Part shown: positions 1,057 to 46,377 of the stretch, in pieces
Layout: each line of letters begins with the position of its first letter
Numbering within the stretch: the first letter of the stretch is position 1
From: a virus
Taxonomy: Duplodnaviria; Caudoviricetes
Reading direction: 5' to 3' (one strand)
DNA: 64,000 nucleotides
Virus record (IMG/VR): IMGVR_UViG_3300046727_000401
Coordinates: 782-64,781 of that record
Position numbers and translations under genes: made by a program
The notes under the pieces: model-generated
Told to the model about the DNA's origin: nothing
The model's input: the letters and a program-made list of their open reading frames with translations, nothing else
Database searches by the model: none

Positions 1057-1326
1057 ATGCGAGAGCTGACATCGTGGCGAGAGTTGATCGTTGCTGAAAT
1101 GGCGGACCATGGGGAGTCCTTCGCTGACGTGAAGGCGTGCACGATTACCGACGGTGAGCTTGATGAACGCTTTGATGCTGGGTTCGGCGGTACCGAAGGC
1201 AAGCCGTTCGCGCTGTGGACTTCTGCTCGGGTCTACTTCCCGCTGTCCTACGACGGTGCGGAGTGGTGCGGGTCGGCGCCTCGTCATCCAAGCGATGAAA
1301 CGCTCGCACACCAGGGCGGTGGCTGA
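1057..1326 (+). CDS. Hypothetical phage protein
   Basis: FDAGFGGTEGKPFALWT...YDGAEW; own promoter. Confidence 0.75.
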   Translation: MRELTSWRELIVAEMADHGESFADVKACTITDGELDERFDAGFGGTEGKPFALWTSARVYFPLSYDGAEWCGSAPRHPSDETLAHQGGG

Positions 1327-19095: not shown

Positions 19096-19593
19096 CTACC
19101 TGATCTCCAGGTGGATGGGGAGCGCCTGGTCGCCGCGGAGTCGGCCCTTGGGCGTGATCTTCACCGACAGCCGGATGCCCGGCGATCCATCCTCGAGCGG
19201 CGTCACCGTGGCCAGGTCGACCGTAAGCACGCGCGGATCCCGCAGGCTCTGCGCGCGCACGCGGCTCTCCAGCTCGGCGCGCGCGGCGGCGGTGTTCTTG
19301 CCCTTGACGTACTGTCGGCACCCGGCCCCGTAGTTGGGCGCGGTCTTCCAGTCCCCGGGGTTGGTCAGGTAGCGGCGGATCAGCGACTGCCGCAGCGCCT
19401 CGTGCTCCGTCACCATGGTGACGTCGCCCGCCGGCGTGATCACGTAGTTCGCGTGCCCGGTCTGGTCGGGCTGCGAGACATCGAACCAGATATCCGATCC
19501 GAAGAACTTGCCGACTTGTGCGGCGATCTCAGCCTCGGTGAGGCCGCCGCCGGTGCCGCCGAGCTCGAACGGTAGGGACAGGGGGAAGGTCAT
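19096..19593 (-). CDS. GPW/gp25-family baseplate protein
   Basis: LRQSLIRRYLTNPG...PNYGAG...DPRV. Confidence 0.85.
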   Translation of the reverse strand: MTFPLSLPFELGGTGGGLTEAEIAAQVGKFFGSDIWFDVSQPDQTGHANYVITPAGDVTMVTEHEALRQSLIRRYLTNPGDWKTAPNYGAGCRQYVKGKNTAAARAELESRVRAQSLRDPRVLTVDLATVTPLEDGSPGIRLSVKITPKGRLRGDQALPIHLEIR

Positions 19594-21284: not shown

Positions 21285-21844
21285 CACTTCCCCTTGAGCA
21301 CCGTGGTGCCCGTCGCTGTCGGAACCGTTCCGGTAGGTGGCCCCGCCGTGCCGCCGCCACCGCCGACAACCGGCAGGTGGAGCGTCGAGACGAAGGACGC
21401 GAGGTCCGAGACGTCGCTTTTGAGAGCCAACGACACCGCGCCGCCCGCGCCGTCGTGCACGACGACCTCAGTGCGCGTGATGACGATGCGGCCGGTAGCC
21501 GGCCCCTGGCCCGTGGGCACCCGGCCCGAGCTCAACACGTCGGTGATCGTCGGCATGAACTCGATCTGCCCCTCGGGTATCGTGACCATCACCTCTTCCC
21601 CGAGGTCGGGCACGCGCCACAGCGCGGCCGAGAGCCGGCAGGTCAGCGGGATGAGCGATGGCTGCAGCACGACCTCGACGAGCACATCGCTGTCGGTGAC
21701 CTCGAAGTGCGAGGCGCCGTCGTCGGGCGCGGTCACCAGGCCGATCGAGCACCACAGGCGCTGGTCGCTGAACGCCTTGCGCATGTCGGTGAGGTCGAGC
21801 TTCTTGCTCGCGCGCCGGCCGCGGAACGGGGCGGTGATCTTCAC
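21284..21844 (-). CDS. Baseplate spike (gpV-like)
   Basis: VPDLGEEVMV OB-fold motif; C-terminal H...GTAGPP. Confidence 0.75.
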   Translation of the reverse strand: MKITAPFRGRRASKKLDLTDMRKAFSDQRLWCSIGLVTAPDDGASHFEVTDSDVLVEVVLQPSLIPLTCRLSAALWRVPDLGEEVMVTIPEGQIEFMPTITDVLSSGRVPTGQGPATGRIVITRTEVVVHDGAGGAVSLALKSDVSDLASFVSTLHLPVVGGGGGTAGPPTGTVPTATGTTVLKGK

Positions 21845-21882: not shown

Positions 21883-22179
21883 ATGCCCAAGACCTACCCA
21901 GAACCGATGACCATGACCGAGCGCGCCATACTGGACGAACTGAGCGCCATCGCCGCGCTTCCGTCCGAGGAGATGACCCTGGAGGATGCCCATCGGGCGC
22001 ACCATCTCAAGGGCTGCCTCGTCGTGATCGATAGGACTCGTCAGCCCGCCGGCAGTCGCGACGTCCGACCCCAGACCGCTGAATTCCAGTGCGACGTTTG
22101 CACTGCATGCGGCCCCCACGGCAACCCGTGCCCGTTCGAGCACTTTCCGCAAGGTCACTTCGTGCGACCTAGGAACTGA
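21883..22179 (+). CDS. Hypothetical Zn-binding protein (antisense insert)
   Basis: TTGACC-17-TACAAA-6-ATG; CDVCTAC...CPFEH. Confidence 0.65.
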   Translation: MPKTYPEPMTMTERAILDELSAIAALPSEEMTLEDAHRAHHLKGCLVVIDRTRQPAGSRDVRPQTAEFQCDVCTACGPHGNPCPFEHFPQGHFVRPRN

Positions 22180-22184
22180 GCCGC

Positions 22185-23906
22185 TCACTTCTGCCACCGC
22201 TTCCGCTGCGCGTCCTCGTACTGCTGGCTCCAGCCCACCGGCTTGCCGTCGCCGCCGCGCAGCGTCTGCCGCTTCGTGGCGAGCGTCGGCGGGGCCACCG
22301 CGCCGCTGTCCGGGCGGATCCCGTCGACCACCATGAAGTCTTGGAGCTCCATCTCGATCGAGATGCCGCTGTCGACGTCGTACTCGAACGTCCCTTCCTT
22401 GAAGCGCATCGGCCGGGTCAGCCCTTGAAGGATCGCGTAATGCTTGACGATGGTCGCGGCGACGCTCGACTGGTAGCCACGGGCCTCGAGGTGCCGCTGC
22501 TTGACGGCCGGCTCGAGGCCACTCGACAGCATCTCGAGATTGAACTCATCCCACTCGACGGTGAGCGCATCGCCCGCCGCGATGTCGAGGATGTTGACGC
22601 CGTGCAGATCCTTCAGGTCTCGGGTCTTCGCGATGAGCACGCGCTCGGCCTTGCCCAGCAGGTTGTAGCGGTTCTCCGCGATGCGCTGCAGCGTCGCCTG
22701 GTCCGTGATGCCGTGGACATCGACGATCTGGTACTCGTCGCGCTCGCGCACCGTCGTCTTGACCTTGCCCTTTTTCGAGACGCTCGTGCTCTCCTTGATT
22801 CGCCGCTTGAAGGTGAACGTGCCGCGCTTCTTGCCGCCGCCGTGGCTGGCCTTGAACACGCCGCTGCGGTCGATCGTGCCCGACGGGTGCTCTGCGGTGA
22901 GCGTGCCCTTCCCCGGCACGTACGAGCGAACCACGATCGTCGGCGCCTGCTCCTTGCCGAGGTGGCGCCGCATCGTCAGGTGTTCAAGATTCCGACCCCA
23001 CGCCATGCGGCGGATCTGCGAGACGTCCTTGTCGGTGATGGTCTTCGGCCGGCTGATCACCACGTCGAGGCCATCCACGAAACAGATAAACCCGTAGCGC
23101 TCGACGAGCTTGTAGATCACGTCCCAATAGCTGGTCTCTTGCTTGACCGGGATCCCGCGCTTGACGTTGGTGGCGACCTCGCTGTGCACGATCGGCAGCG
23201 TCGCCGCGTCGAGGCCGCGCACCGCGACGCCGAGCTGACCATCCGGGTCAGCCTCGCTGAGCAGGTCTTCGACGATGGTGTCAAGGCGCTTGCCGACCGG
23301 GATCCGCCGCGCGGTGCCGTTCGCGTTCGGCGGAAACTGCACCTGCGCGAGGAACGCAGTGTAGTCCTGCCCCTTGATCGTGACCCACTTCCCGTTTTCG
23401 CTGAGCTCGAGGTCGACGTCATCGAACGTGCCGACGATGCGCGGCTTGTTGCCGAGGGTGAACACGTCGCGCGCGGCGTCGGTGCCGAGCTCCAAGCTGA
23501 GCGTCTGCACGGCGTCGCGCGGTCGCGTGGCGCCGGGGTCGGCCGAGCTGAACGGGTGCTGGCGGTCGAGCACGCGCTGCTGGTCGGCGTTGCCGGCGTG
23601 CTCGAACAGGAAGATCTCCGCGGCGCCGGCGCGGATGATCTGCGGGTCGAAGGGCAGATCAAGCACGTCGAAAATGAGCTCGAAGCTGTCAGCCTGCTTG
23701 TAGCTGTTCACGTGGATGGTGACGTTCTTCGGGATGATCGGGATGACCTGGATTTCGCTGTCGCGCGCGGTGTCGCCGAACCCGTCGAGGATGACCTGCA
23801 GGATCGCGCGCGCCTGCGGTCGGTAGATGCGAGCGTGCGCGTCGCGCTGAGCATCGCCCACGGCCGCGGCGACCACGCGCTGTGCGGAGGCGGTCGGGCC
23901 TGGCAT
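22185..23906 (-). CDS. Baseplate hub (gpD-like)
   Basis: Lies between LysM and spike genes; ADSF, IKGQDYT, ETSYWDVI. Confidence 0.75.
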   Translation of the reverse strand: MPGPTASAQRVVAAAVGDAQRDAHARIYRPQARAILQVILDGFGDTARDSEIQVIPIIPKNVTIHVNSYKQADSFELIFDVLDLPFDPQIIRAGAAEIFLFEHAGNADQQRVLDRQHPFSSADPGATRPRDAVQTLSLELGTDAARDVFTLGNKPRIVGTFDDVDLELSENGKWVTIKGQDYTAFLAQVQFPPNANGTARRIPVGKRLDTIVEDLLSEADPDGQLGVAVRGLDAATLPIVHSEVATNVKRGIPVKQETSYWDVIYKLVERYGFICFVDGLDVVISRPKTITDKDVSQIRRMAWGRNLEHLTMRRHLGKEQAPTIVVRSYVPGKGTLTAEHPSGTIDRSGVFKASHGGGKKRGTFTFKRRIKESTSVSKKGKVKTTVRERDEYQIVDVHGITDQATLQRIAENRYNLLGKAERVLIAKTRDLKDLHGVNILDIAAGDALTVEWDEFNLEMLSSGLEPAVKQRHLEARGYQSSVAATIVKHYAILQGLTRPMRFKEGTFEYDVDSGISIEMELQDFMVVDGIRPDSGAVAPPTLATKRQTLRGGDGKPVGWSQQYEDAQRKRWQK

Positions 23907-25006
23907 CAGACGTTGCCTCGCTCTGGGATGATGAGCGTCTCCGACCCGGTCATCACGAAGCTGTGCAGCGCGTTCCGCTCGTGGATCAGCGCCCACGCGT
24001 GCGGCGTACCGTAGAACTTGCGGGCGATGCCGTAGAGGTGCTCACCGGCCTGGGGTCGGTACAGGCGCACGGCGTCCGGCTCGGCGTGTTCGGTGGCCGC
24101 GGCGTCGCCGTCGATCGACGAGCCCGCGACGATGCGCGCGGTGTAGCGCAGCGAGCGCGACCAGTCCTCGAAGTCGAGCACGTTAGCCGCGGTCCGCTCC
24201 GTCATGTCGAGGTCGGCGCGGATCGGCGCGAGCCGGACCAGCAGATCGCGCGCCGCGCCGCGCATCGAGCGGAACTGCGTGGCGATGCGCGAGAACACGT
24301 CCACGTTGGTCGTGATCGGCGCGAGCACGCTCTGGTCGATGCTCGCCGCGAGCGATTCGCGGAACGCGGTCATGTTCACGAGCACCTTGGTGACGTCGTC
24401 GGCGAGCGTTCCGCCGAGCACGTTCCGTGGAGCGAGCGCATCTGCATCGAGCGCGGCCTGCACCGACAGGTCCACCTTGTCCAGCGAGGTCAACGCGTCG
24501 TTGGGTGTGGTCGGAACCCGGGTCTGGTCACTCTCCTGGGGCTCGTTGTAGACGTCGAGGGTGAACTTGTAGTCGATGTCCCACAGCCGCTGCACCGGGC
24601 AGTCGTAGTCGGTGATGATCCCCTCGTACGCGATGTCGCCGTACTGCGCGCGCACGATGCGACCCCGCTTGCACATCGCGACGAAGCGCCGCCACTCGAA
24701 CCGCGCGTAGCCGTCGCCGTTGTAGCGGTCATCCCAGCGCCCCGAGAACGTGTGCGGCTTGTGGATATGGCCGAGAACCTGCACCGCAGGGATTACCGCG
24801 TTCGGGTAATTCGTGCGCACGGTGCGTTGCTGGCCGCCGATGCCCCAGGGCTTGATCGGGCACGCCTTCGCGCCGCCGCCCTTGGTGCCGTCGAATGGGG
24901 TCTTCGAGATCGGATCCGCGGTCCACTCGAAGCGCGCGAGGTCGTCCGCGCTCGACGGGTCCCCGCCGTCGGCGATCTCCTGCAGGGTGAAGACGTGTTC
25001 CGCCAT
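23906..25006 (-). CDS. Tail tube initiator with LysM-like C-terminus
   Basis: LYGIARKFYGTPHAWALIHERN...LIIP; follows tape measure. Confidence 0.8.
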   Translation of the reverse strand: MAEHVFTLQEIADGGDPSSADDLARFEWTADPISKTPFDGTKGGGAKACPIKPWGIGGQQRTVRTNYPNAVIPAVQVLGHIHKPHTFSGRWDDRYNGDGYARFEWRRFVAMCKRGRIVRAQYGDIAYEGIITDYDCPVQRLWDIDYKFTLDVYNEPQESDQTRVPTTPNDALTSLDKVDLSVQAALDADALAPRNVLGGTLADDVTKVLVNMTAFRESLAASIDQSVLAPITTNVDVFSRIATQFRSMRGAARDLLVRLAPIRADLDMTERTAANVLDFEDWSRSLRYTARIVAGSSIDGDAAATEHAEPDAVRLYRPQAGEHLYGIARKFYGTPHAWALIHERNALHSFVMTGSETLIIPERGNV

Positions 25007-26937
25007 CACCCCTCACGGATCGCGTGGAACGCGCTCGAGGGGTTCTTGGCCGCGTCGCGGAACTGCTCGATGAGCCCGAACGCGATGCGGTCCGGGTCGT
25101 CGCTCTGCACCTCGATGCGCGCGATGTGCACGCTCACGTTCGGCTTGTCGGCGATGGCCTTGTGCTTGCCGGTCGGATCCTCGGTGTCGGCGCGCAAGAT
25201 CGCGGTGATGGCCGCCGGGGAGATCGCGATCCCGCTGGTCAGCGAGCGGTTGATGTAGGTCAGGATGTCCTGCTGCGCCTTGGCCGTGTCGAGCGTCTGG
25301 CGCTGGTACTCGGTGAGCGTCATCAGGCCGAGTTCCCACGCGTCGGCGCCGGTGGCGACCATGGCGTCTTTCTGCGCCTGGAGCTGGTTCGCGCGCTCGA
25401 GCTGGGCCTGTGCGTATGCCTTCAGGCCGCCGGCCTTCGCGACCTCGTCATCCCCGACGCCCATCGCCTCGAGCTCCTTCATCTTCGCGATCATGACGTC
25501 GCCCGCGAACTCGTTGCCCTCGCGGTCGCGACGCATCGGTCCGCGCAAGGCGTCGCCAGCGAGGTTCGCCCTCTGCTTGTAGAGGTCGATCGCCGCCTGG
25601 ATGTTGTTCTCGGCCGCCGCCTTCTTTGGGGCCGCATCCGCGGCACGCTCCATGGCCTGCGTGAGCGTATCGGATGCCTTGGTGAGCAGCTCGAATTGCT
25701 TGCTCGTCTTGTCGAGCGCCAGCGTGGCCAGCGCGTGCGATGCCCCGAGCGCCTCGTTGAGGATTGAGCCGAACGCGTAGCCGAGCGCCAGCGATTGCGC
25801 GAGCAGGTTCGCGTTCGCGAACGCGCCCTTCATGCCGACGTTCTGCCGCCCCGCGCCGGCCGGCTCGAAGACATAGCCGCCGTTTTCGTCGAACCTGTCG
25901 CGCGCGCCGCGGCCCCACGCCATGAGCGACGAGCCGCGCGAGGCCAGGTTGGTCCCGCCCTCCGTCGCGCGTCCGCCGAGCACGCCGGCCACCTTCACGG
26001 CCAGCCAGATCTTCCCCATCGTCATCAGCGCCTCGCGGTGCTCGACGAGGAACCCGACGGCGTCCTTCATCACGCCGAACCCCTTCGCGATGCCATCGCC
26101 GATGGAGTGGGCGATGTTCGCGACGGTGTGCTCGTTCGCCGCAAGCCAGACGTTCCACCGCTGGATCTCCGCGGTCGCGGCCTTGAACAGGGGCAGCCCG
26201 ACCGCGCCGAGCCCGATCTGCAACTTGTCCTCCAGCGTCGAGGTCACGCCGGTCCAACTCGATGCAAACTCGTTCTGCGCGTTCTTCATGCTCTCGCTGT
26301 CGAGCGTGGCGCGCACCAGGTTGAGGCGCTTCGTCGCGCCCATCTGGCGGAACTCCTCCATCGAGACGTGCGCCATGCCGAGCATCTGTTTGGCGAACAT
26401 CATCCGCTGCGAGACGTTGCCGCTGAGCATCTCGGAGATCTCCAGCGCCGTGTACGCGGACTCGTAGCCGAACGCCTTCGCGGCGATCACTCCCTTTTCG
26501 GTGATCGTCGTCATGTCCTTGATGCTGCCGCCGGCCTGGAACGTGGCGACTGCGACCGCCTTGCCGAAGGTCAGAATCTCCTGGGTGGTGACCGGGGTCT
26601 CTGTCGAGAACTTCTGGAACTCGAGGTAGAGCCTGTTCGCGTTCTCGGTCGCCTGCTCCCACGAGCCCCCGAGGTTGCCCTGAAGCATCGCGGAGAGGCC
26701 GATCTTCGCGTTCTGCACGTTCGCGTTGAACCCTACCAACGCCTTCGCGGCATGCCCGAGCACGACGGCAAGCCCAGCTGTCGCTGCCGCGCCGAGCAGG
26801 CCGAACGACATCGCCGCATCCTTGTTCGCGCGCTCGAGCTGGCGCACGTCGCCCTTGAGCTCTTGCGTGCCCGTCCGGCCGCTGCGGTTGTCGACCGCAT
26901 ACCGAATCCCTACATTGTAGATGGTCTCGCCACTCAT
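25006..26937 (-). CDS. Tape measure protein
   Basis: 643-aa Ala-rich helical ORF after chaperone; FSTETP and SWTGVTSTLED motifs. Confidence 0.85.
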   Translation of the reverse strand: MSGETIYNVGIRYAVDNRSGRTGTQELKGDVRQLERANKDAAMSFGLLGAAATAGLAVVLGHAAKALVGFNANVQNAKIGLSAMLQGNLGGSWEQATENANRLYLEFQKFSTETPVTTQEILTFGKAVAVATFQAGGSIKDMTTITEKGVIAAKAFGYESAYTALEISEMLSGNVSQRMMFAKQMLGMAHVSMEEFRQMGATKRLNLVRATLDSESMKNAQNEFASSWTGVTSTLEDKLQIGLGAVGLPLFKAATAEIQRWNVWLAANEHTVANIAHSIGDGIAKGFGVMKDAVGFLVEHREALMTMGKIWLAVKVAGVLGGRATEGGTNLASRGSSLMAWGRGARDRFDENGGYVFEPAGAGRQNVGMKGAFANANLLAQSLALGYAFGSILNEALGASHALATLALDKTSKQFELLTKASDTLTQAMERAADAAPKKAAAENNIQAAIDLYKQRANLAGDALRGPMRRDREGNEFAGDVMIAKMKELEAMGVGDDEVAKAGGLKAYAQAQLERANQLQAQKDAMVATGADAWELGLMTLTEYQRQTLDTAKAQQDILTYINRSLTSGIAISPAAITAILRADTEDPTGKHKAIADKPNVSVHIARIEVQSDDPDRIAFGLIEQFRDAAKNPSSAFHAIREG

Positions 26938-27140
26938 CGTCGTTCGTCTTGCGGTCTGCTGCTCCCCGCCTCGTTCGCGCGCTCGATCAGATCGGTCAGC
27001 TCCTCGTTGGCCAGGTAACGGTCGGTCAGTCGCATGTCCAGGTAGTCGTCATGCGAGCCGGGCCACCCGTGGTAGTACGCGCGCGTGTACTCCTTCCAGA
27101 CTAGCCGGCGAGCCTCCCAGGCGAGGCGTTGGCGGGGGTC
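26934..27140 (-). CDS. Tail chaperone extension (gpT-like), probably made by -1 frameshift
   Basis: -1 frame RQRLAWEARRLVWKEY...DERR ends in ATGA overlap with the tape measure start. Confidence 0.55.
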   Translation of the reverse strand, partial: DPRQRLAWEARRLVWKEYTRAYYHGWPGSHDDYLDMRLTDRYLANEELTDLIERANEAGSSRPQDERR

Positions 27141-27613
27141 CCGTCGGTCCGAGGCGCGGACACGCCCACGGTCCGAGCCCCTCTCAGCCCCTCGAAGAAC
27201 TCCTCCGCCGGGAGCCCGTTCACGTCGTTGTAATACATGGCGAGCGCGTCCCACACGCGCTTGCCCCAGTCGTTGATCTCGGCGAGCGGCGCGCCGGTGT
27301 TGTTCACGTGCCGGTAGGCGACGGTGCCGTCCTCCAGCCGCGCGCCGAGCCCGACGATTGCGATCCGGATGCACTCGCGCTCCTCCGCCTCGCGCGACAG
27401 CTTGGCGCTCGACTTCTGCATCGTGGTCATGAGCGCGTCCGCCATCTCGGCGGCGGCGATGACGTCGCGGCTCTTGAGTTCGCGCACGAAGATCTCGGCG
27501 CACTCGGTGACCTGCTTGGGGAGGACGTACTGCTTGATGGGCCACGGCAGCGGGAATCGCTGCCGTAGCTCGCGCTCGAACCCCTCGAGCGCGTCGTTCC
27601 GTGGTTGCTCCAT
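27101..27613 (-). CDS. Tail assembly chaperone (gpG-like)
   Basis: Between tube and tape measure; FVRELKSRD. Confidence 0.7.
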   Translation of the reverse strand: MEQPRNDALEGFERELRQRFPLPWPIKQYVLPKQVTECAEIFVRELKSRDVIAAAEMADALMTTMQKSSAKLSREAEERECIRIAIVGLGARLEDGTVAYRHVNNTGAPLAEINDWGKRVWDALAMYYNDVNGLPAEEFFEGLRGARTVGVSAPRTDGTPANASPGRLAG

Positions 27614-28153: not shown

Positions 28154-29710
28154 CTACTGCTGGATCACCGTGCCCGTTGCAATGTCCGTATCAAGCACGA
28201 CGGCGAGCATGTGGCCGATGAGCTTGACCCGCCAGAGGATGTGCTCCTCGCCCTGCGCGCGCTGACCCGGCGTGTTCACGCTGACCTGGTCGACGCTGAA
28301 CCCGTTGCCGCCGTCGGGCGAGCGGTCGATGACGCGCGAGGCGAGCTGCAGGCCGAGCGAGAACGCGGTGAGCTCGGCGCCCATGAGCGCGCGGATCTCC
28401 GGGGTGTTCTTGCCCTTGACGTAGGTGCGCAGGCGCGTCGCGGCCGACAGCTGGAGGAAGTCGGCCATGCGGCGCCGCGCCAGCTCGGTGCGGCCTGACG
28501 AGAGGTTGGTGGTGACCACCGAGCGGAACTGGAACCCGTCGCTGGTGCGCTCGAGCGTCGAGATGCCGGCCGCCTTGAGCGCGCGGAGGTCGGGCACGGA
28601 GAGCGTGGTGTTCGTGACGCGCTCGATGCCGGCGAGTAGCGCCACCGTCTGGAACGAGCCGGCGTGAATATCCACGTCGACCTGGGACATGATCGACGCG
28701 AGCCAGACGTGCGGAGCGGTCTGCATCTCCTGGCTCGTCGTCGGGTCGATGGTGAAAGGGCTGTTGTAGCACCACACGATGCGGTCGCTCCGCGTGGTGA
28801 TCTGCGTACCCACCTGCGTGACCTCGGTGCTCACGCTTTGGCCGTGGACCTGCGCCCAGGTGAGGAACACCCGGTCCGAGACCTGCGAGCTTAGCGTGAC
28901 GAGGTTCGAGTGGAACGTCGCTGCCGAGCCGGTCACGATCTCCGGCACGAGCACGCACCGGACGTCCGGGAACACCGCGAGCGTGTTCACCGCGGTGTTG
29001 TAGTCGGTGACCGTGAGCGTGCCCTCGGAGCCAGCCACAGAGGTGTATGCGGCTACGGTTTGCCCCAGTAGGGTAAACCCAAGCGTGTCGGCGCCATCCA
29101 CGCCGGAGGCGCTGTTGTTCGGCCGTCCGTCGGCCAGCTTCACGAGGTCGATGTACCGCGCGACGTCCGAGCCCACGAGCGCGGCGGTGTTGTCCACGCC
29201 GGTCGAGATGTCTACGTTCTGGTAGACGATCTGCTTGTTGAGGTACTTGATCGTCAAGTTGAACTGCGTGCTGATCGCCGATGTCGCCGCGGTGACCGAC
29301 CAGCCGACCAGCGAGCCCCAGGCGCCGACGCTCGACGCGTCGATCCGGAGCACCGCGGTGCCGCCGCCGCCCGCCGTGTTCTCGAGCGTGAACGACGCCT
29401 TGACCGCGTCGCTTGCGTGGACACGCTGGACCACGAGCGTCCCGAAGGACTTGTTCAGCAGCGCCTTCCAGACCTCGCCAACCAACGTTCCGCCGCTGCC
29501 CTGGTCGCGCGTGCCGTAGGTGTTCACGAAGTCGCCGACGTTCGTGATCGTGACCGGCGCATCGGGGCCGCGTACGCACTTGCCCGCGAGCCCGGTGATC
29601 GAGAAGTCGGCCCCGCGGATGAACCCGGACGGGCCGCGCTCGGCGACGTACAGCGCCTCGAGCTTCGCGTAGTCGGCGGGATTCGTGCTGAATATCACGT
29701 CGGTGCTCAT
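28154..29710 (-). CDS. Tail sheath protein
   Basis: GKCVRGP...FVNTYG, GAWG, RRMADFL, NTP motifs. Confidence 0.9.
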   Translation of the reverse strand: MSTDVIFSTNPADYAKLEALYVAERGPSGFIRGADFSITGLAGKCVRGPDAPVTITNVGDFVNTYGTRDQGSGGTLVGEVWKALLNKSFGTLVVQRVHASDAVKASFTLENTAGGGGTAVLRIDASSVGAWGSLVGWSVTAATSAISTQFNLTIKYLNKQIVYQNVDISTGVDNTAALVGSDVARYIDLVKLADGRPNNSASGVDGADTLGFTLLGQTVAAYTSVAGSEGTLTVTDYNTAVNTLAVFPDVRCVLVPEIVTGSAATFHSNLVTLSSQVSDRVFLTWAQVHGQSVSTEVTQVGTQITTRSDRIVWCYNSPFTIDPTTSQEMQTAPHVWLASIMSQVDVDIHAGSFQTVALLAGIERVTNTTLSVPDLRALKAAGISTLERTSDGFQFRSVVTTNLSSGRTELARRRMADFLQLSAATRLRTYVKGKNTPEIRALMGAELTAFSLGLQLASRVIDRSPDGGNGFSVDQVSVNTPGQRAQGEEHILWRVKLIGHMLAVVLDTDIATGTVIQQ

Positions 29711-35812: not shown

Positions 35813-35869
35813 TCGGACGAGCGCGAAGGTCAGGCTTGCCAATGTTTGTAGCGGTGCTAGGATTCCGGC

Positions 35870-39375: not shown

Positions 39376-41232
39376 TCACTTCTTCGCCCGCGTCGGCTTC
39401 GCTGCAGGCTTGCCCGGCTTCGCGGGCATGTTCGGGTTGCCCTGCGGGTCCTCGCCCTCCATCGGCGTCCCGCCCTTGCCGGGCTGCACCGACCCGCCCG
39501 CGGTCGCCGCGGCCTGCATCGCCTCTGCCGCCATCTCCTCCGCCGTCAGGCTCTCGCGGATCTGCTCGCGGATGAGCTCGGCGTCATCCTGGGGCACGTC
39601 GCCCAGGATCGTCCCGTACGTCTTCGACAGAAACAGCTCGGCGAACCGCGGGGACTTCTGCGGGATCCCGTTGAACACGTCGATCGCCAGCGCGATCGCG
39701 TCGTTCACACCCTCGACGTCGAAGGACTCCAGGCCGGTGATGTTCGCCTTCGGCACCGCCTCGCCGCGCCCCAAGCTCGCGAGCACGAACAGCCGGCGCA
39801 CGAACGGGTGCAGCAGTGCCGCGAGCGCGTCCAGCACCACCGCCGTGGTTGCGTGGTCTTGCTGCTTGCTCTCGCCCGACCGCTGTAGCGCCGCGTTGTC
39901 CATGTTCGCGCTGAGAGCCATGCTGAACATGACCCGGTGCATCTCGCGCATCGCGTCGTTGCAGCTCTCGCGCGCCGCGACGAACACCGCCGGGTCGATC
40001 CCGACGTACCGCGCATCATCGCCGGCCGCGCGCGTCTGCGTGTACCCGACGCCGCGCACCTGGTTCGTGGTCCGGTTCTGGTCGCTGGCGATCGTCGGAA
40101 GGTCCGTCCCGGATTGGGAACCGTCGCTCGGCCCCAGGAATTCGTAGAGCTGCGCGAACAGCGAGCGGTACTCGGCCCAGCCCATCGCACAGCGCTTGTT
40201 GAGGTGCTCCTTCGCGAGGCAGTGGAGCTTGCCCATCGCGTAGAGGCCCTCGGGCAAGGCCAGGCACTCGAGCGGGACGCGGCCGAACGCGTGCGGGCCG
40301 CCGTCGACCGGCCTGAATACCTCGTCCACCTGCGGCGGCTTGGCCGGGTCGACATCGATCACGTACTTGAGCCACTGGTAGGCGTCCCACACGACGAACG
40401 TGTGGCGCATCGTCTTGCGGCGATCCTTCGGCGTCGCGCGGATCCGCGTGCAGGTCAGGACCATCGCCCAGGTCAGCCGGCCCTCGTCGTCGTACTGCCA
40501 GTCGACCACCTGCTCCGCAGGGATCAGGCGAAGATACGGGTCCAGACCCTCGCCCGGCTCCTCTTCGCCGGCGCGCGGCAGGTCGGCCAGCACCCACGCG
40601 GTGCGGGTCTGCAGCGCCTCGCGCAGCACGTCCACGCAGAAGCGGTGGATCGACCGGCCGCCTTCGTCGTCCTCGTCCTCGTCGTTGCCGTCCTCGAGCC
40701 CGTAGTCCGCGGGCCGCTCGGCCTCGTCAGTGACATCGGACACCCACTCCTGCCACCACTTCGCCTTCGCATCGGGCTCCTGTGCCTTGCCGTCGTCGGC
40801 ATCGAGCAGGGTGAACGAGACCTTGAGCGGGTCGGTCCCGAGCCCGGCCAGCAGGTGGTCGATGATGGTCCCGGGGTACGGGTAGTAGTGGGCGCGGCGC
40901 TTGCGCTGCTCGTAGACGGCCGCGTCCTCATACAGGTTCTGCGGGAACAGCCGCTTCATGAGCGCCGGGTCGGCGAGCAGGCGCTGGCCGCCGGCGTAGA
41001 GCGCTCGGCACTCGGCCCAGTAGTCGCCCAGCCACTCGTCATGACGCTGGCACAGGTCCCCCCAGGTCAGCGTGAGCGCGTCGGACGTGAGGTTGAGCTG
41101 CGCGGTCGCGGTGCCACCGGCCGGCGCATCGGACCGCAGGCGCATGTTCAGTGCGGTCGCCGCGGCGAGCGCCGGGCCGCCGGGCAGGCTGTCGAGCTGG
41201 GCGCCGATCATGGAGCCAGGGATAGATGCCAT
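39376..41232 (-). CDS. Portal protein
   Basis: Position before minor head gene; RALYAGG, YEQRKRRA, HAFGRVP, SGESKQQD. Confidence 0.8.
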   Translation of the reverse strand: MASIPGSMIGAQLDSLPGGPALAAATALNMRLRSDAPAGGTATAQLNLTSDALTLTWGDLCQRHDEWLGDYWAECRALYAGGQRLLADPALMKRLFPQNLYEDAAVYEQRKRRAHYYPYPGTIIDHLLAGLGTDPLKVSFTLLDADDGKAQEPDAKAKWWQEWVSDVTDEAERPADYGLEDGNDEDEDDEGGRSIHRFCVDVLREALQTRTAWVLADLPRAGEEEPGEGLDPYLRLIPAEQVVDWQYDDEGRLTWAMVLTCTRIRATPKDRRKTMRHTFVVWDAYQWLKYVIDVDPAKPPQVDEVFRPVDGGPHAFGRVPLECLALPEGLYAMGKLHCLAKEHLNKRCAMGWAEYRSLFAQLYEFLGPSDGSQSGTDLPTIASDQNRTTNQVRGVGYTQTRAAGDDARYVGIDPAVFVAARESCNDAMREMHRVMFSMALSANMDNAALQRSGESKQQDHATTAVVLDALAALLHPFVRRLFVLASLGRGEAVPKANITGLESFDVEGVNDAIALAIDVFNGIPQKSPRFAELFLSKTYGTILGDVPQDDAELIREQIRESLTAEEMAAEAMQAAATAGGSVQPGKGGTPMEGEDPQGNPNMPAKPGKPAAKPTRAKK

Positions 41233-41241
41233 TGCGCAAGC

Positions 41242-41667
41242 CTACACGGTTTCGTCTTCGGCCGCGGCACGGATCGCGGTCTCCACGACGGCCTCTTGGT
41301 CGACGTCTCGCTCGCGGAACAGCGCGACAGGTCTCGGCTTGTCGGCCTGCCGCTTGAACTCCTCGATGAGCCCGAACGCGATCCGATCAGGATCGTCGCC
41401 GTGGACTTCGATCTTCTGGATGTGGATCCCGAGCGGCAGAAATCGCCGCGCGATCCCGCCGAGGTTCGGGAACCGTTCGACGATCCTCGCGGCGTGCTCA
41501 TGACAGACGAGGATCCTTGGCATGATGTCGTTGATCAGCGCAAACGTTGCGATCGCGTGACATTCACCCGGGACACGATCATTGCCGTACCGGGTGAAGT
41601 ATTCGCAGCCTGGCTCTGCGATCTCCGCGGCGGTACATGTCACGACGTCGCCAGGTTCGATGGGCAT
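41242..41667 (-). CDS. Cys/His protein carrying a copy of the tape-measure C-terminal motif
   Basis: HIQKIEVHGDDPDRIAFGLIEEF vs TMP HIARIEVQSDDPDRIAFGLIEQF; TGC-TACCGT-6-ATG. Confidence 0.8.
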   Translation of the reverse strand: MPIEPGDVVTCTAAEIAEPGCEYFTRYGNDRVPGECHAIATFALINDIMPRILVCHEHAARIVERFPNLGGIARRFLPLGIHIQKIEVHGDDPDRIAFGLIEEFKRQADKPRPVALFRERDVDQEAVVETAIRAAAEDETV

Positions 41668-41705
41668 GGCTCGACGGTAGCACGTTTGCCGTGCTACAAA
41701 CCAGC

Positions 41706-41933
41706 ATGCTCACCACCGCGCACCTCCTGCTCCACCTCGGCAAGCACACGTGCGGCACGGCCGGATGCCGAGACCGCGCCTCGCGCCTGATCCGCTGCAC
41801 GACCTGCAAGGCAGTCATCGCGCGCTGCGGAACCCACGGGGCGAACATGATGCGCGAGCGCGACCGGCACTGCGCTACGCCAGCGCCTGTTCGTACTGCG
41901 GACCCACGAGCGCCAGCGTCGGAGTCCCGCTGA
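41706..41933 (+). CDS. Small Zn-finger protein (antisense insert)
   Basis: GTGCTACAAAC promoter; C..GC...CTTC...CGTH. Confidence 0.55.
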
Positions 41934-42774
41934 CCGTGACCGCCTGCATCAACACGAAGTGACCCGGCGGCACGAGGTACTTGAGCGAGCCCACGTTCCC
42001 CGAGGTCGCCCCGACCCCGGCGATCTTGACGCCTCGACGGTCGCGCTCGGTGGTTGGCGGATTCGACGCATCGCAGAGGAGCTTGACGTACCCCTCTTGC
42101 GCGCCGAGCAGGGTCGACGTCGCCTCCGCGTTGACGCAGTAGCTCACGTTGCACGGCGCGGTGGTGCTCGGTTGCCAGGCCGATCCACCGATCGCGCGAG
42201 TCGTGGTCGTCGTGGTGATCGTCCCGAACCCCGCGCCCGGATCTCCCTGCGCTCCTGTCGCGCCGGTGGCACCCGTCGAACCCTGTGCACCAGGAGCTCC
42301 AGTTGCTCCGGCGGGGCCTTGCGCGCCGGTTGATCCTGTTCCTCCGGTCGATCCAGCCGGCCCAGTTGCCCCCGTCGGTCCGGTCGCACCTGTTGATCCC
42401 TGCGATCCCGTGGGTCCCGTCGCTCCCTGCGGTCCGGTGATGCCAGGATCCCCCACCGGGCCCTGTGAACCCGTCGGACCTGTCGGACCTGCTGCGCCAG
42501 CCGGCCCGGTCGCGCCTGTGGCGCCTGGCGCTCCTTGCGGGCCCGTGGGACCAGTCGCGCCTGTGGCGCCCGTTGCCCCGGTGGGGCCCTGCGCGCCCTG
42601 CGGACCCTGTGGTCCCATCGGGCCGATGAGCTCGTAGCCCGCGGCGCCCTTCCAGAACAGCGAGCAGGCATCGGCGCCACTCTGGTAGGCGATCAGCTGC
42701 GGATCGCTGCCGGGCGGAGCCGTCACCCTCGGATCCACGTTCGTGATGTACGGATGCAAAGCGTCGAACGTCAT
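41875..42774 (-). CDS. Collagen-like (Gly-X-Y) protein
   Basis: About 44 uninterrupted GXY triplets and a C-terminal beta domain; GGAGG SD. Confidence 0.85.
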
Positions 42775-42839
42775 CTCGTAACCTCCTGCCCCAGTGAGGG
42801 GGAGGCTACGATACGGCGCCGGCGAAAGCTACCAGCTGA

Positions 42840-43208
42840 TCAGCCCGCGATCTTGACCACGTCCATCATGTCGGTGCGAGACGAGCGCTCGCGGAGCTGG
42901 GCCGTGACCTTGACGTCACCCTGCCTGGTCGGCTCGTCGAAGGTCTCTTCGCGCAGCTGGCGCTTGAGCTGGTCGATCCGGACCAACGCCGCCGCGAGCG
43001 AGCGCTCCGCCACCGCAGCCCGGGACTCGGCGATCGCCAGCTCCACCAGGGCCGCCGCCGCCGTGTCGCTGATCAGCGCGAGGTGCGGCGCCAGGTGCTT
43101 GTGGCAGACCTCGGCCCCACGCTGGGCCAGGCGCAACAGGCGACCGCGGGACCGCGAATCCGCGGGGAGGCGATTCGGGATGGGCCCGACTTTGGTTCCG
43201 GTGCTCAT
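42840..43208 (-). CDS. Hypothetical protein
   Basis: ATGA overlap; coiled coil. Confidence 0.55.
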   Translation of the reverse strand: MSTGTKVGPIPNRLPADSRSRGRLLRLAQRGAEVCHKHLAPHLALISDTAAAALVELAIAESRAAVAERSLAAALVRIDQLKRQLREETFDEPTRQGDVKVTAQLRERSSRTDMMDVVKIAG

Positions 43209-43552
43209 CGCCAGTCCGCGCAGTAGCCGAGGTGGCAGATCGGCTGGTCGGTCCCGGCCGGGCACGTGTACGAGTGCTGGCACACGGCGGCGGAGTCGAG
43301 GCACATCGTCTGACACGCCTGGTCCCCGAGGCCGAACAGCAGCGTCGGGTCGCAGTTCGAGGTGACCGACGAGCATCGATTGACGGGCGCCCCGCCGCCC
43401 CCGCCGCCCCCTCCGTCGCAGTAGATCGGGTTGCCGTCGTCGTCGTAGTCGCACGGCACCTGCAGCGCCTGCGTGCTGTCGGACGTGGACGGTGCCATGT
43501 TGACCGCGCAGGCCACCGTTGCGCATATCAGGAACAGGATCGTCGCTCTCAT
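43205..43552 (-). CDS. Cys-rich lipoprotein
   Basis: MRATILFLICATVAC lipobox, DSTQAL, Gly linker, many Cys. Confidence 0.75.
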   Translation of the reverse strand: MRATILFLICATVACAVNMAPSTSDSTQALQVPCDYDDDGNPIYCDGGGGGGGGAPVNRCSSVTSNCDPTLLFGLGDQACQTMCLDSAAVCQHSYTCPAGTDQPICHLGYCADWR

Positions 43553-43926
43553 CGTCGCTCTCCTTCTTTGGGTTCGGGTACGCGGTGCGCGGCGAGGATC
43601 TTGTCGAGCGCGGCGATCGTCTCCGGGAACCCGCCGTATCGCGCCACGAAGTTGCGCGCCGCTTCGAACTCCACCAGCGCCTCCGGCCCGAGCCCGTACG
43701 GCACTGGGCACACGTGGCCGGGCGACGTGGCGGGCGGGGTGATCTTCAGTGCCCTGACGATGGCGTCCAGTTCCATGCAGACCGCTTGGATGTTTCCCCG
43801 GATGACGTCGAGCGCCTCGGGCGCGGTGAAGCCGGCGTCATCGCAACGCTTGATGATGCGGAGCGCGGCCTCCTTCGCGCTTGTCCAGTCGATCTCGGTC
43901 GCTGAGGTCAAAACGGTGCGGGTCAC
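43549..43926 (-). CDS. Hypothetical protein
   Basis: GTGA/ATGA overlaps. Confidence 0.55.
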   Translation of the reverse strand: MTRTVLTSATEIDWTSAKEAALRIIKRCDDAGFTAPEALDVIRGNIQAVCMELDAIVRALKITPPATSPGHVCPVPYGLGPEALVEFEAARNFVARYGGFPETIAALDKILAAHRVPEPKEGERR

Positions 43927-44216
43927 CAGCGGAACTCCACCGGCGCAATGGCGGGCCGGAGCTGCGCCGAGGGGTACTCGTAGGAGCTGGTCGACCCGTC
44001 GGCGTCCGTGGTGGTGATGGCCCAGTGGTCGGCCCGTCGTCCGGGTCCGGTGACCACCGCGGTGTTGTAGTGGTCCCACATCCACACGACCGCGCCGGCC
44101 GCGTAGTTGCGCACCACGGGGCCGCGCCACGCCGCCAGGGTCGCGGGCTTGATGCTGGCGATGTGGGCCGCCAGGACGGCGAACGGGTCGGTCTGGGTCT
44201 GCGTCGTGTTCATCAT
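43923..44216 (-). CDS. Hypothetical protein
   Basis: Directly downstream of promoter cassette copy B. Confidence 0.6.
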   Translation of the reverse strand: MMNTTQTQTDPFAVLAAHIASIKPATLAAWRGPVVRNYAAGAVVWMWDHYNTAVVTGPGRRADHWAITTTDADGSTSSYEYPSAQLRPAIAPVEFRW

Positions 44217-44222
44217 GGTTCT

Positions 44223-44263
44223 GTTTATAGCACCGCTACTGTGCTCGCGCAAGGGGCAATCGT
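44223..44263 (-). repeat. 41-bp promoter cassette, copy B
   Basis: Reverse complement ACGATTGCCCCTTGCGCGAGCACAGTAGCGGTGCTATAAAC. Confidence 0.85.
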
Positions 44264-44313
44264 CCGAACGGTTACCCTGGTACAATGTCAGCAAGACATG
44301 TTACCATCATGTC

Positions 44314-44835
44314 ATGCCAAGGATCTACACCAAGCGCGACCCGATGGAACGCTTTAATTACAAGGTCTTGAAGACAGAAACGTGTCACATCTGGCAGGGT
44401 ACCAGGCTCGGTAAAGGGGGAACTCTGTACGGGATTTTTGCTCACAGAACCAGCCGGCCCAAGGCAACATGCTTGGCGCATCGCTGGATTTTCGAGCAGA
44501 CCCACGGGCTCATCCCGGACGGGATGTTCGTGCTGCACAAATGCGACAACCCTGCCTGCGTGAGGATCGACCATCTTTTTCTTGGAACGCCCAAGCAGAA
44601 CACCCAGGACATGCTCCGCAAGAAGCGGAATTTCGTGCGTAACGGAGAGTTGAGCGGAATGGCCAAGCTCAGTGATGCCCAGGTCGCAGATCTTCGCCGC
44701 AGAGCGAAGAACGGTGAGAGCCGAAAGTCACTGGCCAATAGGTTCAAGACGTGCGCCACCAACGTTAGGTCAATCATCCTCGGCCTCAGCAGATCGAGAC
44801 CAGCAGACCGCCGTCTAGCCAAATGGGGCCTTTGA
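44314..44835 (+). CDS. HNH homing endonuclease with C-terminal HTH-like domain
   Basis: CHIWQG, YG, AHRW, VLHKCDNPACVRIDHLFLGTPKQNTQDM, AKLSDAQV; visibly lower GC. Confidence 0.9.
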   Translation: MPRIYTKRDPMERFNYKVLKTETCHIWQGTRLGKGGTLYGIFAHRTSRPKATCLAHRWIFEQTHGLIPDGMFVLHKCDNPACVRIDHLFLGTPKQNTQDMLRKKRNFVRNGELSGMAKLSDAQVADLRRRAKNGESRKSLANRFKTCATNVRSIILGLSRSRPADRRLAKWGL

Positions 44836-46377
44836 TGGAGATGTACCTCTCTGAGATTGCTTGACTTCCCAGAGTTCATTGTACCCGTGTGCGAGCGCGT
44901 CGATCTGGTCATCCTCCAAATCCCCCACGCCCGTGAACTTGTCCGCCTCCCACAGCAGCTCATCGGCCCAGGTGATTCCGGCCTGAACGCCGGCGCGGAG
45001 CTTGCGCGCGAAGCGCTCGCCGGTGACCTCGTTGGCCGGCAGCATGAACCGGCCCTGGCGCCCGTCGGGCCATGTCGCCTTGCTGTCCCACCACAGGTCA
45101 CTGTCGATCGGCACGAGCACCCGGCCCGCGTTCCAGGCCGCCGCGAAGCCTTGCGCGCGCGTGAACTTGTCGCCCTTGGGCTTGATTGGGCGGATGCGCA
45201 GGCGCGGCTCGATCTCCTTGAGGATCTGCGGGACCGCCTTGAACCCGCCCACGGACTCGACGGCGATCGGCACCGGGTAGCGGTCGCCCCAGTGGCGTTG
45301 CTGGATCTCGTAGAGCTTGCGCGCGACAGCCGGCACGGTGATGTGGTCGCGCCAGCCGTGGAGGATCCACACCTTCATGTCCAGGCCGAACCCCTTCGCG
45401 GCGAGCACGAACGCGGCCGAGAAGTCGGCGCGGTTGTCGTCGGTCGCGGCGGGGTCGCAGCAGATGATGATGCGGTGCTCGTCCGGGCGCCAGTCGGCCA
45501 GGCTGAACGTGGCCGGCTCTCCGAAGATGTCGGCGCCCTTCGGCCGCGGGCGCTGCTGGTAGAGCGACGCGAAGCTGTACGGCCCCGAGCTCTCCTCGAT
45601 CCGCCGGAGCTCCTCGATCGGCATCTGCTCGGGCCAGAGCGCCTCGCCGATCTGCCGCCCCAGGATGTCGTCCTCGTCCTCGCAGATCGCGGGGAGGCGA
45701 ACCTCCTCGAACTGGTACCCCTTGTACTTGCCCTGCAGCAGCCGCCCGATCAGGTCGTCGGCGTGCCAGCGCGTGAACTGCGCGATCACCGAAGCGCCCA
45801 TGTTGCGCTTGCTCGGCGGGTGCAGACGCGGCCACAGGACGTCGGTGAAGAACTCCCACACGTTCTCGCGGATCACCTTGCTCTCGGCGTCCTTGCGGTC
45901 CTTGTACAGGTCGTCGAGGAGTGCCACGCCGTTGATCGGCATGCCCGACCACTGGCCTTTGTACCCGTGCGCGAGCAGCCCGCCGCCGCGGTCCGTCTGC
46001 CACTCGTGCACCGCCGCCGACCCGCGCGGTATCTCGACGCCACCACCGGTGGCCATGCGCCGGCAGATGCGGGACTTCGATGCCGCGAGCTGGTCGTTGT
46101 ACGTCGCGTAGCCGTGCGACAGCACCGGGTCGCGCGCCATGCGCCAAGCCAGCCCATGCAACCCGGTCGTGCTCTTGCCGGTCTGCGGTGGCTGCATCAC
46201 GCACGCGAACACCCGCTCATACCGCGTGCGCTCCCACAGGTCGGCGACAGGCTCGAGGTGGCGCTTGATGCTGTGGTGCGGCGAGACGCGCGCCACGAAG
46301 TCCCGGAATGACTCGCCGTGGTCCGCACGCAGGAGGGCGGTGAGCCGCGCTTCCTCTGCGGTCCCGAAGGCGACCAC
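44815..46377 (-). CDS. terL: Terminase large subunit
   Basis: PPQTGKST Walker A, LLDD Walker B, TRWHADDL, LYQQRP, CDPA, DDQIDA. Confidence 0.95.
   Translation of the reverse strand: MVAFGTAEEARLTALLRADHGESFRDFVARVSPHHSIKRHLEPVADLWERTRYERVFACVMQPPQTGKSTTGLHGLAWRMARDPVLSHGYATYNDQLAASKSRICRRMATGGGVEIPRGSAAVHEWQTDRGGGLLAHGYKGQWSGMPINGVALLDDLYKDRKDAESKVIRENVWEFFTDVLWPRLHPPSKRNMGASVIAQFTRWHADDLIGRLLQGKYKGYQFEEVRLPAICEDEDDILGRQIGEALWPEQMPIEELRRIEESSGPYSFASLYQQRPRPKGADIFGEPATFSLADWRPDEHRIIICCDPAATDDNRADFSAAFVLAAKGFGLDMKVWILHGWRDHITVPAVARKLYEIQQRHWGDRYPVPIAVESVGGFKAVPQILKEIEPRLRIRPIKPKGDKFTRAQGFAAAWNAGRVLVPIDSDLWWDSKATWPDGRQGRFMLPANEVTGERFARKLRAGVQAGITWADELLWEADKFTGVGDLEDDQIDALAHGYNELWEVKQSQRGTSPSKAPFG

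Follow-up and report, generated by a model that had tools for sequence, protein, structure and literature searches.

Directly upstream of the portal gene of a contractile-tailed phage lies an open reading frame of 141 codons (ORF141, positions 41242–41667, minus strand) whose product, judged from its sequence, is a chimera in which a head from a family of small cysteine- and histidine-bearing phage proteins is joined to a copy of the C-terminal motif of the phage's own tape-measure protein (TMP). The stretch of DNA analysed, which we call the window, comprises 64,000 of the 64,781 bases of IMG/VR virus record IMGVR_UViG_3300046727_000401, a record rated complete, and has a G+C content of 67.7%. 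As the comparisons below indicate, accessory proteins of at least three unrelated families in this phage lineage have acquired the same piece of the TMP end, by addition or by insertion. We tentatively propose, at close to an even chance, that the motif is a portable docking tag, which would take the accessory proteins that carry it to the tail-tip partner of the TMP end.

ORF141 residues 79–111 (41335–41433, minus strand) align with TMP residues 601–633 at 20 of 33 identities in a pairwise BLASTP comparison (E 2e-12), and the same segment scores 78 bits against the motif profile described below. Within it, residues 82–104 (41356–41424) are identical to TMP residues 604–626 (25060–25128) at 18 of 23 positions, 12 of them consecutive, just as a first-pass annotation of this DNA had noticed. 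That annotation had also read the silent differences in the D-P-D-R codons as a sign of selection on the protein rather than of a fresh duplication, and the codon analysis bears it out. These four codons differ at synonymous third positions only and are followed by an identical run of 21 nt, while nucleotide identity over the whole motif is 67/99. By the Nei-Gojobori method the proportion of synonymous differences (pS) is 0.46 against a non-synonymous proportion (pN) of 0.14 in the 23-codon core, and 0.49 against 0.28 over all 33 codons. Changes concentrate outside the DDPDRxAFGLxE core and synonymous sites vary freely among ten TMP genes and the carriers, a pattern from which we conclude that the motif copy is under protein-level constraint.

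The TMP gene itself (25006–26937, minus strand, 643 aa) is named by no Pfam or PHROG model. We accept it as the TMP from its position, between the sheath with adjoining small genes on one side and the LysM, hub and Baseplate_J genes on the other, and from its membership of a family of ~640-aa proteins; its donor-type motif (25060–25128) starts 31 residues from the C-terminus. A profile built from twelve motif segments (A3) matched 202 proteins at E ≤ 1, and the counts that follow refer to the best 120 of these 202. With ORF141 and one other accessory protein (P0023, see below) excluded, 111 of the 118 remaining matches have the motif near the C-end. Ninety-nine of the 111 are at least 500 aa long, and 95 of these 99 TMPs have the start of the motif precisely 31 residues before the C-terminus. 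The other twelve are short matches, which we read as TMP C-termini left over where a contig is short or a start was called too late, P0119 being less clear. Among the 99 full-length TMPs there is no variation in DDPDR, in the F that follows or in the residues E, V and S that precede it, and the tip after the helix (RDAAKNPSSA..A.REG) is conserved at 0.9 or more at most positions. ORF141 falls outside this family. It is 141 aa long, where the TMPs have ~590–675 aa, and its gene precedes the portal at a distance of 14 kb from the tail genes, whereas TMP genes of the family are placed between tail tube/chaperone genes and baseplate hub genes. In ORF141 the motif is 51 residues away from the C-terminus and retains E, V, DDPDR, A, F, G, L, E and F, while the TMP-invariant Ser is replaced and the KNPSSA..REG tip is absent.

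In structural terms the ORF141 motif is an N-capped helix, DDPDRxAFGLxExF, preceded by an IHIxKIEV stretch. We modelled ORF141 and the last 120 TMP residues as monomers with AlphaFold2 (AF2); the TMP-end model, from a 41-row alignment, has a predicted local distance difference test score (pLDDT) of 76. In each model a helix begins at the Pro of DDPDR. In ORF141 it spans residues 93–109, and residues 81–90 are modelled at low confidence. The stretch before the helix is unstructured in both models (pLDDT ~50–70) and the confidence of the helix is only moderate, as one would expect if the segment folds when it meets a partner. A profile search of the PDB with the motif returned no matching solved structure. 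We also scanned DNA for the pattern DDPDR[ILMF]AFG, most matches being due to chance or to the wrong frame. The full motif was present in three of four pattern-matched stretches from viral contigs and in seven of 103 pattern matches from metagenomes (L042, L044, L077, L082, L085, L091 and L117), and in species genomes one of 72 pattern matches was a true TMP copy, on a phage-sized contig. Taking all searches together, with the best 120 of 202 profile matches, the motif did not turn up outside this TMP family and the accessory proteins of its phage lineage.

Four proteins that are not TMPs carry the motif: ORF141, a gene at the same place on the metagenome contig L117 (ORF128), P0023 and a 477-aa protein. 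L117 is 3.7 kb long and has the order terminase, divergent small ORF, slot gene and portal (82% identical), where by slot we mean the site that ORF141 occupies in the window. The L117 slot gene product, of 128 aa, aligns with ORF141 over its full length at 35% identity (BLASTP E 9e-13). The motif forms its C-terminal end (profile E 2.6e-14, among the frames searched), and the protein stops four residues after the helix Phe. Its first nine residues are the same as in ORF141, with four synonymous and no non-synonymous differences among the nine codons, and the comparison of ORF141 with ORF128 gives pS 0.47 and pN 0.20. The motifs of ORF141, ORF128 and the TMP are about equidistant from each other (58, 56 and 54 of 78 nt), so that a common origin of the motifs in the carriers is indistinguishable from separate captures.

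The other two carriers have different heads. P0023 (290 aa) matches ORF141 at residues 78–112 only, and there the motif follows a head of ~105 residues. This head is homologous to a 112-aa ORF of G001, the closest complete relative of the phage, and that ORF stops at the position where the motif starts in P0023 (E 1e-8). The 112-aa ORF (L011 4165–4503) is absent from the window, relative to which it is an insertion at ~49957. P0023 was not found in viral contigs; it is probably on the same Logan contig as the TMP P0028, because for each of the two a single Logan contig is recorded, of 59,406 bases in both cases. The fourth carrier comes from a 67.8-kb contig of a metagenome-assembled genome, which encodes both a TMP and a 477-aa protein with a second copy of the motif (profile E 1.2e-9). 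This protein (L206 1141–2574) adjoins a DUF5131 gene, and its motif-less homologue in the window, ORF412 (3966–5204, plus strand; BLASTP 25% identity, E 4e-8), likewise follows DUF5131. The two proteins belong to no known family, and the difference between them includes a gap-free insertion of ~27 residues in the 477-aa protein which is the DDPDR helix motif. Over its 21-codon core the 477-aa carrier differs from its own TMP by pS 0.38 and pN 0.15, and pS exceeds pN in all the comparisons made.

Motif-less relatives exist for every head family. DDPDR and the A, G, L, E and F of the helix are kept in all carriers. In the 477-aa carrier Ile takes the place of the Phe that follows DDPDRxA, and the IH[IV]x[KR]IE[VL] stretch is kept in ORF141, ORF128 and P0023. 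One position of the motif varies more among the TMPs than any other (M 0.44, F 0.38, I 0.08 among the matches listed), and here carrier and own TMP have I/I for ORF141, M/M for the 477-aa protein and L/M for P0023 with P0028. The two agreements, against one difference, weakly strengthen the idea that the carriers act through the partners of the TMP end; three pairs are too few for a test, and agreement would also be expected from copying of the phage's own TMP. A second motif copy, searched with A3 and for the window with the ORF141 protein as query, is present in the window and in the 67.8-kb contig. It is absent from the complete or near-complete relatives G001, G005 and G010, and also from G006, which is 51% complete.

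The head of ORF141 (residues 21–79; 41431–41607, minus strand) belongs to a family, without a name so far and here called CCCH, of small phage proteins that stand alone. A HMMER search of 1.84 billion representative proteins returned 22 proteins at E ≤ 0.001, ORF141 included. Twenty head relatives (62–129 aa; E 3e-16 to 2.4e-4) align with ORF141 residues ~5–80 only, and either stop within a few residues of position 80 or bear unrelated short tails. The TMP-end motif is missing from all 20, a finding which the first-pass annotation had named as telling against its idea of a TMP mimic, but in the positional orthologue in L117 the motif is kept. In the alignment of ORF141 with the 20 relatives (A1, 21 sequences) C21, Y23, Y27, C36, L44, C55, H58 and A59 are invariant, as are I62, R65, P67, L69, G70, R75 and F76. 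Fusion of the motif to a Cys/His module, described earlier as C...C...C...CHEH, is hence correct, with the amendment that only C21, C36, C55 and H58 of this pattern are invariant in the family. ORF141 has these four residues together with CxYFxxYG and RFPxLG, all within ~60 residues, and the head probably binds zinc.

Pfam and PHROG scans of ORF141 and all 21 members of the head family gave no consistent family, and a Foldseek search of the ORF141 model against the PDB gave nothing at E ≤ 0.001 (best E 2.2). Leads from the ESM Atlas (<0.9) pointed to unnamed virus and Actinomycetota clusters and to DUF7455, and were unconfirmed by Pfam. The head is modelled by AF2 at pLDDT 80–94, the whole ORF141 model at 76. 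A profile comparison of the ORF128 head with A1 gave a probability of 32%, the pairwise BLASTP match being clearer. An alignment in which head relatives and TMP ends were mixed (A4) misplaced the TMP ends and was not used. The C-terminal tail of 30 aa (41245–41334, minus strand), with a modelled helix at 124–138, is present in ORF141 only: no head relative carries it and the L117 orthologue stops straight after the motif. One head relative sits among small genes upstream of the terminase in an unrelated 52-kb phage without the motif, and the phage G007 has a CCCH-head homologue and neither this TMP family nor the motif.

ORF141 is the sole member of its 90%-identity cluster and occurs on one contig. 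It had no tblastn match in 50,697 phage records, and no close relatives were found in viral contigs. Residues 72–141 gave no match to longer proteins at E ≤ 0.1, a query this short being unable to reach significance in 5.8 billion sequences. Among the data sets listed as containing the sequence there was none of RNA. DNA contigs of three runs covering 40800–42200 yielded no second ORF141 allele; one run has an identical piece of 687 nt, and in another the gene start is of the L117 type, on a contig of 247 nt. Inspected by eye, ORF141 shows neither a signal peptide nor a membrane segment. Its G+C content at third codon positions (GC3) is 0.77, compared with 0.93 in the portal and TMP genes.

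The gene does lie just upstream of the portal, as first described: its stop is 9 nt before the ATG of the portal gene (39376–41232, minus strand; phrog_145, E 1.2e-20). It had further been credited with its own promoter. The element in question, an extended -10-like TGCTACCGT followed by 6 nt and ATG, of the leaderless type, is present at 41665–41682 (minus strand), but it is not private to ORF141, since in the relative L131, where the slot is empty, TGCTACCGT stands 7 nt before the portal ATG. It is thus common to ORF141 and the portal operon, and as it directly precedes the portal in L131 we read ORF141 as a cassette probably inserted downstream of it, between the promoter-like element of the portal operon and the portal, and co-transcribed with the structural genes, with timing to match. 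No terminator-like site was detected on the minus strand of 41000–45000. The pattern TGNTANNNT-N6-RTG occurs eight times in the window against 0.34 expected (at 300, 16423, 35855, 39029, 41665, 44299, 52269 and 58752), with at least five of the eight sites at ORF starts. This enrichment suggests leaderless transcripts from extended -10 promoters, a habit of Actinobacteria. At 35855 and 39029 the pattern precedes small ORFs that are encoded on the plus strand within the structural module, itself on the minus strand.

What occupies the slot differs from relative to relative. G001 (63.6 kb; TMP 95% identical) has the TMP copy of the motif only; ORF141 is absent, and the slot holds an unrelated gene of 263 aa (phrog_10141) between flanks that are 91% identical to the window. 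Among six portal-bearing IMG/VR relatives this 263-aa gene is found in L126, which is G001, and in L127, while in L128 and L131, with portals 97% identical, next to nothing separates the portal from the divergent small Cys-rich ORF. The more distant L129 has other genes at the slot and in L130 the region is missing. The slot therefore has at least four states and displays presence/absence polymorphism at a fixed site, as in moron-type cassettes. Because phages with near-identical portals have the slot empty or filled by an unrelated gene, ORF141 is, from these comparisons, a dispensable accessory gene, and the earlier suggestion that it serves as a core timer of tail assembly has to be given up.

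The upstream bound of the slot is the divergent small Cys-rich ORF (41706–41933, plus strand, 75 aa), which is kept in G001, L117, L128 and L131 whatever the slot contains. It has its own TGCTAC-type -10-like element a few bases upstream and matches no Pfam family; its product could be a regulator of the divergent promoters. In L117 a second small cassette (1046–1320), with an ORF of 50 aa (1086–1238, minus strand), lies upstream of the slot gene, and the boundary GTTTGTAGCAC...AACGTG...TA.C is repeated before each cassette, which suggests that recombination at the promoter region stacks cassettes.

How would a piece of the TMP end act on a separate protein? The tag would consist of a short hydrophobic stretch followed by the DDPDR-capped amphipathic helix DDPDRxAFGLxExF. 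ORF141 is probably made late, together with virion proteins, because its gene is inserted between the promoter-like element of the portal and the portal gene. The tag would then bind what the TMP end binds, that is a baseplate cavity of hub, spike or tube initiator, or the bundle of TMP ends itself, and so bring the variable head to the growing tail tip, in the simplest case as a passenger of the virion. Structures of known tails are instructive here. In phiTE, according to the description in PMC11972413, three C-terminal fragments of the TMP are buried in the hub, where they touch helices of the spike and walls of the hub and contact three spike and two hub subunits; in P2 the TMP end is reported as a three-helix bundle near the spike (preprint 10.64898/2026.09.14.750843), and an AF2 model of the T4 TMP with the tube initiator gp48 has been reported (preprint 10.64898/2026.03.06.709160). 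As the TMP end is held in the hub cavity of solved tails, we place most weight on docking to the partner of the TMP end.

Two candidate partners are encoded next to the TMP. One is a LysM-ended protein and candidate tube initiator (23906–25009, minus strand; phrog_21362), whose start overlaps the TMP stop and whose LysM end matches PDB 9gtp_P (E 0.0021). The other is a candidate baseplate hub of 573 aa (22185–23906, minus strand), so assigned from its position and conservation in relatives with a weak PHROG 'tail protein' match; its profile found chance-level matches only in the PDB. Action through the partners of the TMP end was already the idea of the first-pass annotation, and as the leading reading it has gained from the three further carriers. 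The mimicry which that idea assumed is only partial: with the invariant Ser and the conserved tip lost, the carriers are not full mimics.

Several observations weigh against a docking tag. ORF141, ORF128 and P0023 replace both the TMP-invariant Ser and the usual Gln before DDPDR, where the 477-aa carrier has Thr and Ala, and the same three lack the conserved TMP tip (...KNPSSA...REG), although in phiTE, as described, the very tip is the part buried deepest (PMC11972413). In the 477-aa carrier the stretch before the helix is lost, while the helix and some of the tip are retained, so that only ~16 residues are common to all four carriers. By the same account of phiTE, three TMP ends fill a hub cavity of this type and leave no obvious free site (PMC11972413). 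Two of the carriers, or their motif-less homologues, are encoded outside the structural module, and the complete relatives G001, G005 and G010 do without a second copy.

A related idea, by analogy possible but doubtful, is that the last TMP helix is a loading signal. A tagged protein would then enter the baseplate hub or the lumen of the tube beside the TMP end and be injected before the DNA, the heads being injected effectors, for instance for anti-defence or host take-over. The tag would thereby be the equivalent in phages of the signals that mark cargo for contractile injection systems. In a variant of this idea a tagged regulator could be sequestered in finished tail tips and so couple late gene control to assembly, in the manner of FlgM export.

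A conserved copy of the TMP end could instead be a decoy, which competes with the real end and modulates or sabotages the tail tips of its own phage or of co-infecting relatives, or soaks up a host factor that senses the TMP. Precedents for parts of this have been described: Avs18 is activated by TMP (preprint 10.64898/2026.01.04.697583), T4 Imm binds TMP (preprint 10.64898/2026.03.06.709160) and Tai proteins, encoded by morons close to the packaging module, prevent other phages from assembling their tails (PMC11364771). We nevertheless regard it as unlikely. A decoy needs the motif alone, whereas the carriers always attach it to sizeable and varied domains, and a decoy made from the portal operon alongside the phage's own tail proteins, with a near-identical motif, would poison its own assembly. 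All four carriers lack the TMP-invariant Ser, the tip is missing except for the part retained in the 477-aa protein, and the absence of an evident signal peptide or membrane segment in ORF141 counts in the same direction. Decidedly unlikely, in our opinion, is a function without any link to the tail, in which the DDPDR-capped amphipathic helix is a generic self-association unit reused for making oligomers. The broad hydrophobic face of residues 93–109, seen in sequence and AF2 model, the described three-helix bundle of P2 TMP ends (preprint 10.64898/2026.09.14.750843) and the small number of residues shared by the four carriers would all suit such a unit. It does not account for the restriction of the motif, in all searches, to this TMP family and accessory proteins of the same lineage, or for G007, which has the head homologue without this TMP family and lacks the motif, and the agreement of carriers with their own TMP at the variable position speaks against it too.

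The motif in the carriers might also be a neutral relic, a TMP 3' end captured by illegitimate recombination and left in frame by chance in GC-rich DNA. Phage genomes are mosaic, the slot is a recombination hot spot with its several states, stop codons are rare at 68% G+C, and ORF141 is alone in its cluster on a single contig. A relic is improbable all the same, since four carriers read the motif in the same frame and keep its core despite pS of ~0.4–0.5, the L117 orthologue retains both motif and first nine residues at 35% identity, and changes fall mostly outside the core. As for a conserved DNA or RNA site, recombinational or regulatory, with the protein likeness as a by-product, the 21-nt run shared by ORF141 and the TMP gene is what invites the idea, and we find it hardly credible: nucleotide identity over the motif is low while the amino-acid core is kept, synonymous sites are free to vary among the ten TMP genes and the carriers, and all copies are read in the same frame. 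The restriction to one lineage, the recurrence, the existence of motif-less relatives, the retention of frame and core at pS 0.4–0.5 and the two carriers which head the portal operon are together better explained by a portable module than by a scar or a DNA element.

The nearest systems described so far are effectors of actinobacterial contractile injection systems (CIS). Tme of Streptomyces davawensis is reported to be loaded in a contractile tail-like particle and to interact with spike and tube-initiator proteins (PMC11126660), and Sle1 of S. lividans is described as a TMP-related effector loaded in a contractile injection particle (PMC13277306). As described there, they resemble the carriers in having TMP-derived sequence on variable functional domains, in a modular, 'reconfigurable' architecture. 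By the same descriptions they are set apart from ORF141 in that they are large and TMP-like, contain coiled coils and transmembrane regions and come from bacterial CIS clusters, while the carriers here have ~16–35 residues of the TMP end on separate small accessory proteins in phages which keep a full TMP. ORF141 is accordingly outside the Tme/Sle1 class, with 141 aa, TMP similarity over 33 residues, no Pfam domain and a location in a 64.8-kb virus record. Thermus phage P23-45 is reported to have a virion RNA polymerase fused to the TMP, a function which travels into the host with the TMP (preprint 10.1101/2022.12.01.518664); there the cargo is within the TMP polypeptide, here it would be a separate protein bearing only the TMP end. 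Tai and other morons are alike in being small polymorphic accessory genes near the packaging genes and portal with a connection to tail-tip assembly; compared by description only, Tai proteins differ in targeting the central tail fibre of other phages and in not being copies of structural proteins (PMC11364771). In the literature searched by full text we found no description of a TMP-end copy on separate proteins.

A further parallel concerns the head of the virion rather than the tail. The capsid targeting sequence of T4 is a short shared peptide that directs unrelated internal proteins into the virion head by exploiting an interaction of assembly; it sits at the N-terminus, works through the head scaffold and is removed by cleavage. 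The module described here differs in being C-terminal or internal and derived from a tail protein, and its targeting role is a proposal. If the tag works as proposed, it would offer a rule, readable from sequence, for which accessory proteins ride in a phage tail, and a compact means by which proteins of choice might be loaded into contractile tails, and the TMP end would then be a discrete docking module and not merely the end of a ruler. Even apart from mechanism, a piece of ~27 residues from a structural protein has repeatedly been inserted in unrelated accessory proteins and kept under selection. Few examples of mini-module shuffling in phages are as clean as this one, and through it a set of otherwise unknown proteins acquires a probable connection with the tail tip.

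The remaining genes of the window fit a phage with a contractile tail, whose module comprises sheath, Baseplate_J and gp25-like proteins. The sheath (28154–29710) matches PDB 9ezm_A, 'tail sheath protein FI' (E 5.5e-6), and between sheath and TMP an out-of-frame ORF (26934–27545) overlaps a small gene; the tail chaperone is assigned to 27101–27613. An SU10-type capsid protein, a Mu-F-like protein and a large terminase are also encoded, and a Pfam scan of 20 larger ORFs of the window revealed no integrase. Between the terminase-proximal genes and the slot is a gene for a collagen-repeat protein (41875–42774, minus strand; Pfam Collagen E 1.1e-19, with matches to many PHROG tail-fibre families). 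It is missing from G001, where 24 nt separate the flanks, and one public run contains a G001-type junction without it. The product of the ORF at 43205–43711 (minus strand) is rich in Cys, begins with a hydrophobic N-terminus and contains a run of Gly; small Cys-rich proteins like it, probably secreted, are encoded in the same region of L128 and L131, and in several copies in L129. Within the minus-strand tail module a plus-strand ORF of 98 aa (21883–22179), with a coding-like GC3 of 0.77, sits between the hub candidate and the spike candidate (21284–21844) and may be another inserted accessory gene. An open frame of ~967 aa (8300–11200, minus strand) combines an apiosidase-like catalytic domain (E 2.7e-43) with a collagen-binding-type domain, and a 565-aa protein encoded among the baseplate genes (19590–21287, minus strand) has a SASA-type carbohydrate esterase domain (E 1.2e-6); from these domains both are likely to be tail proteins that degrade the host surface.

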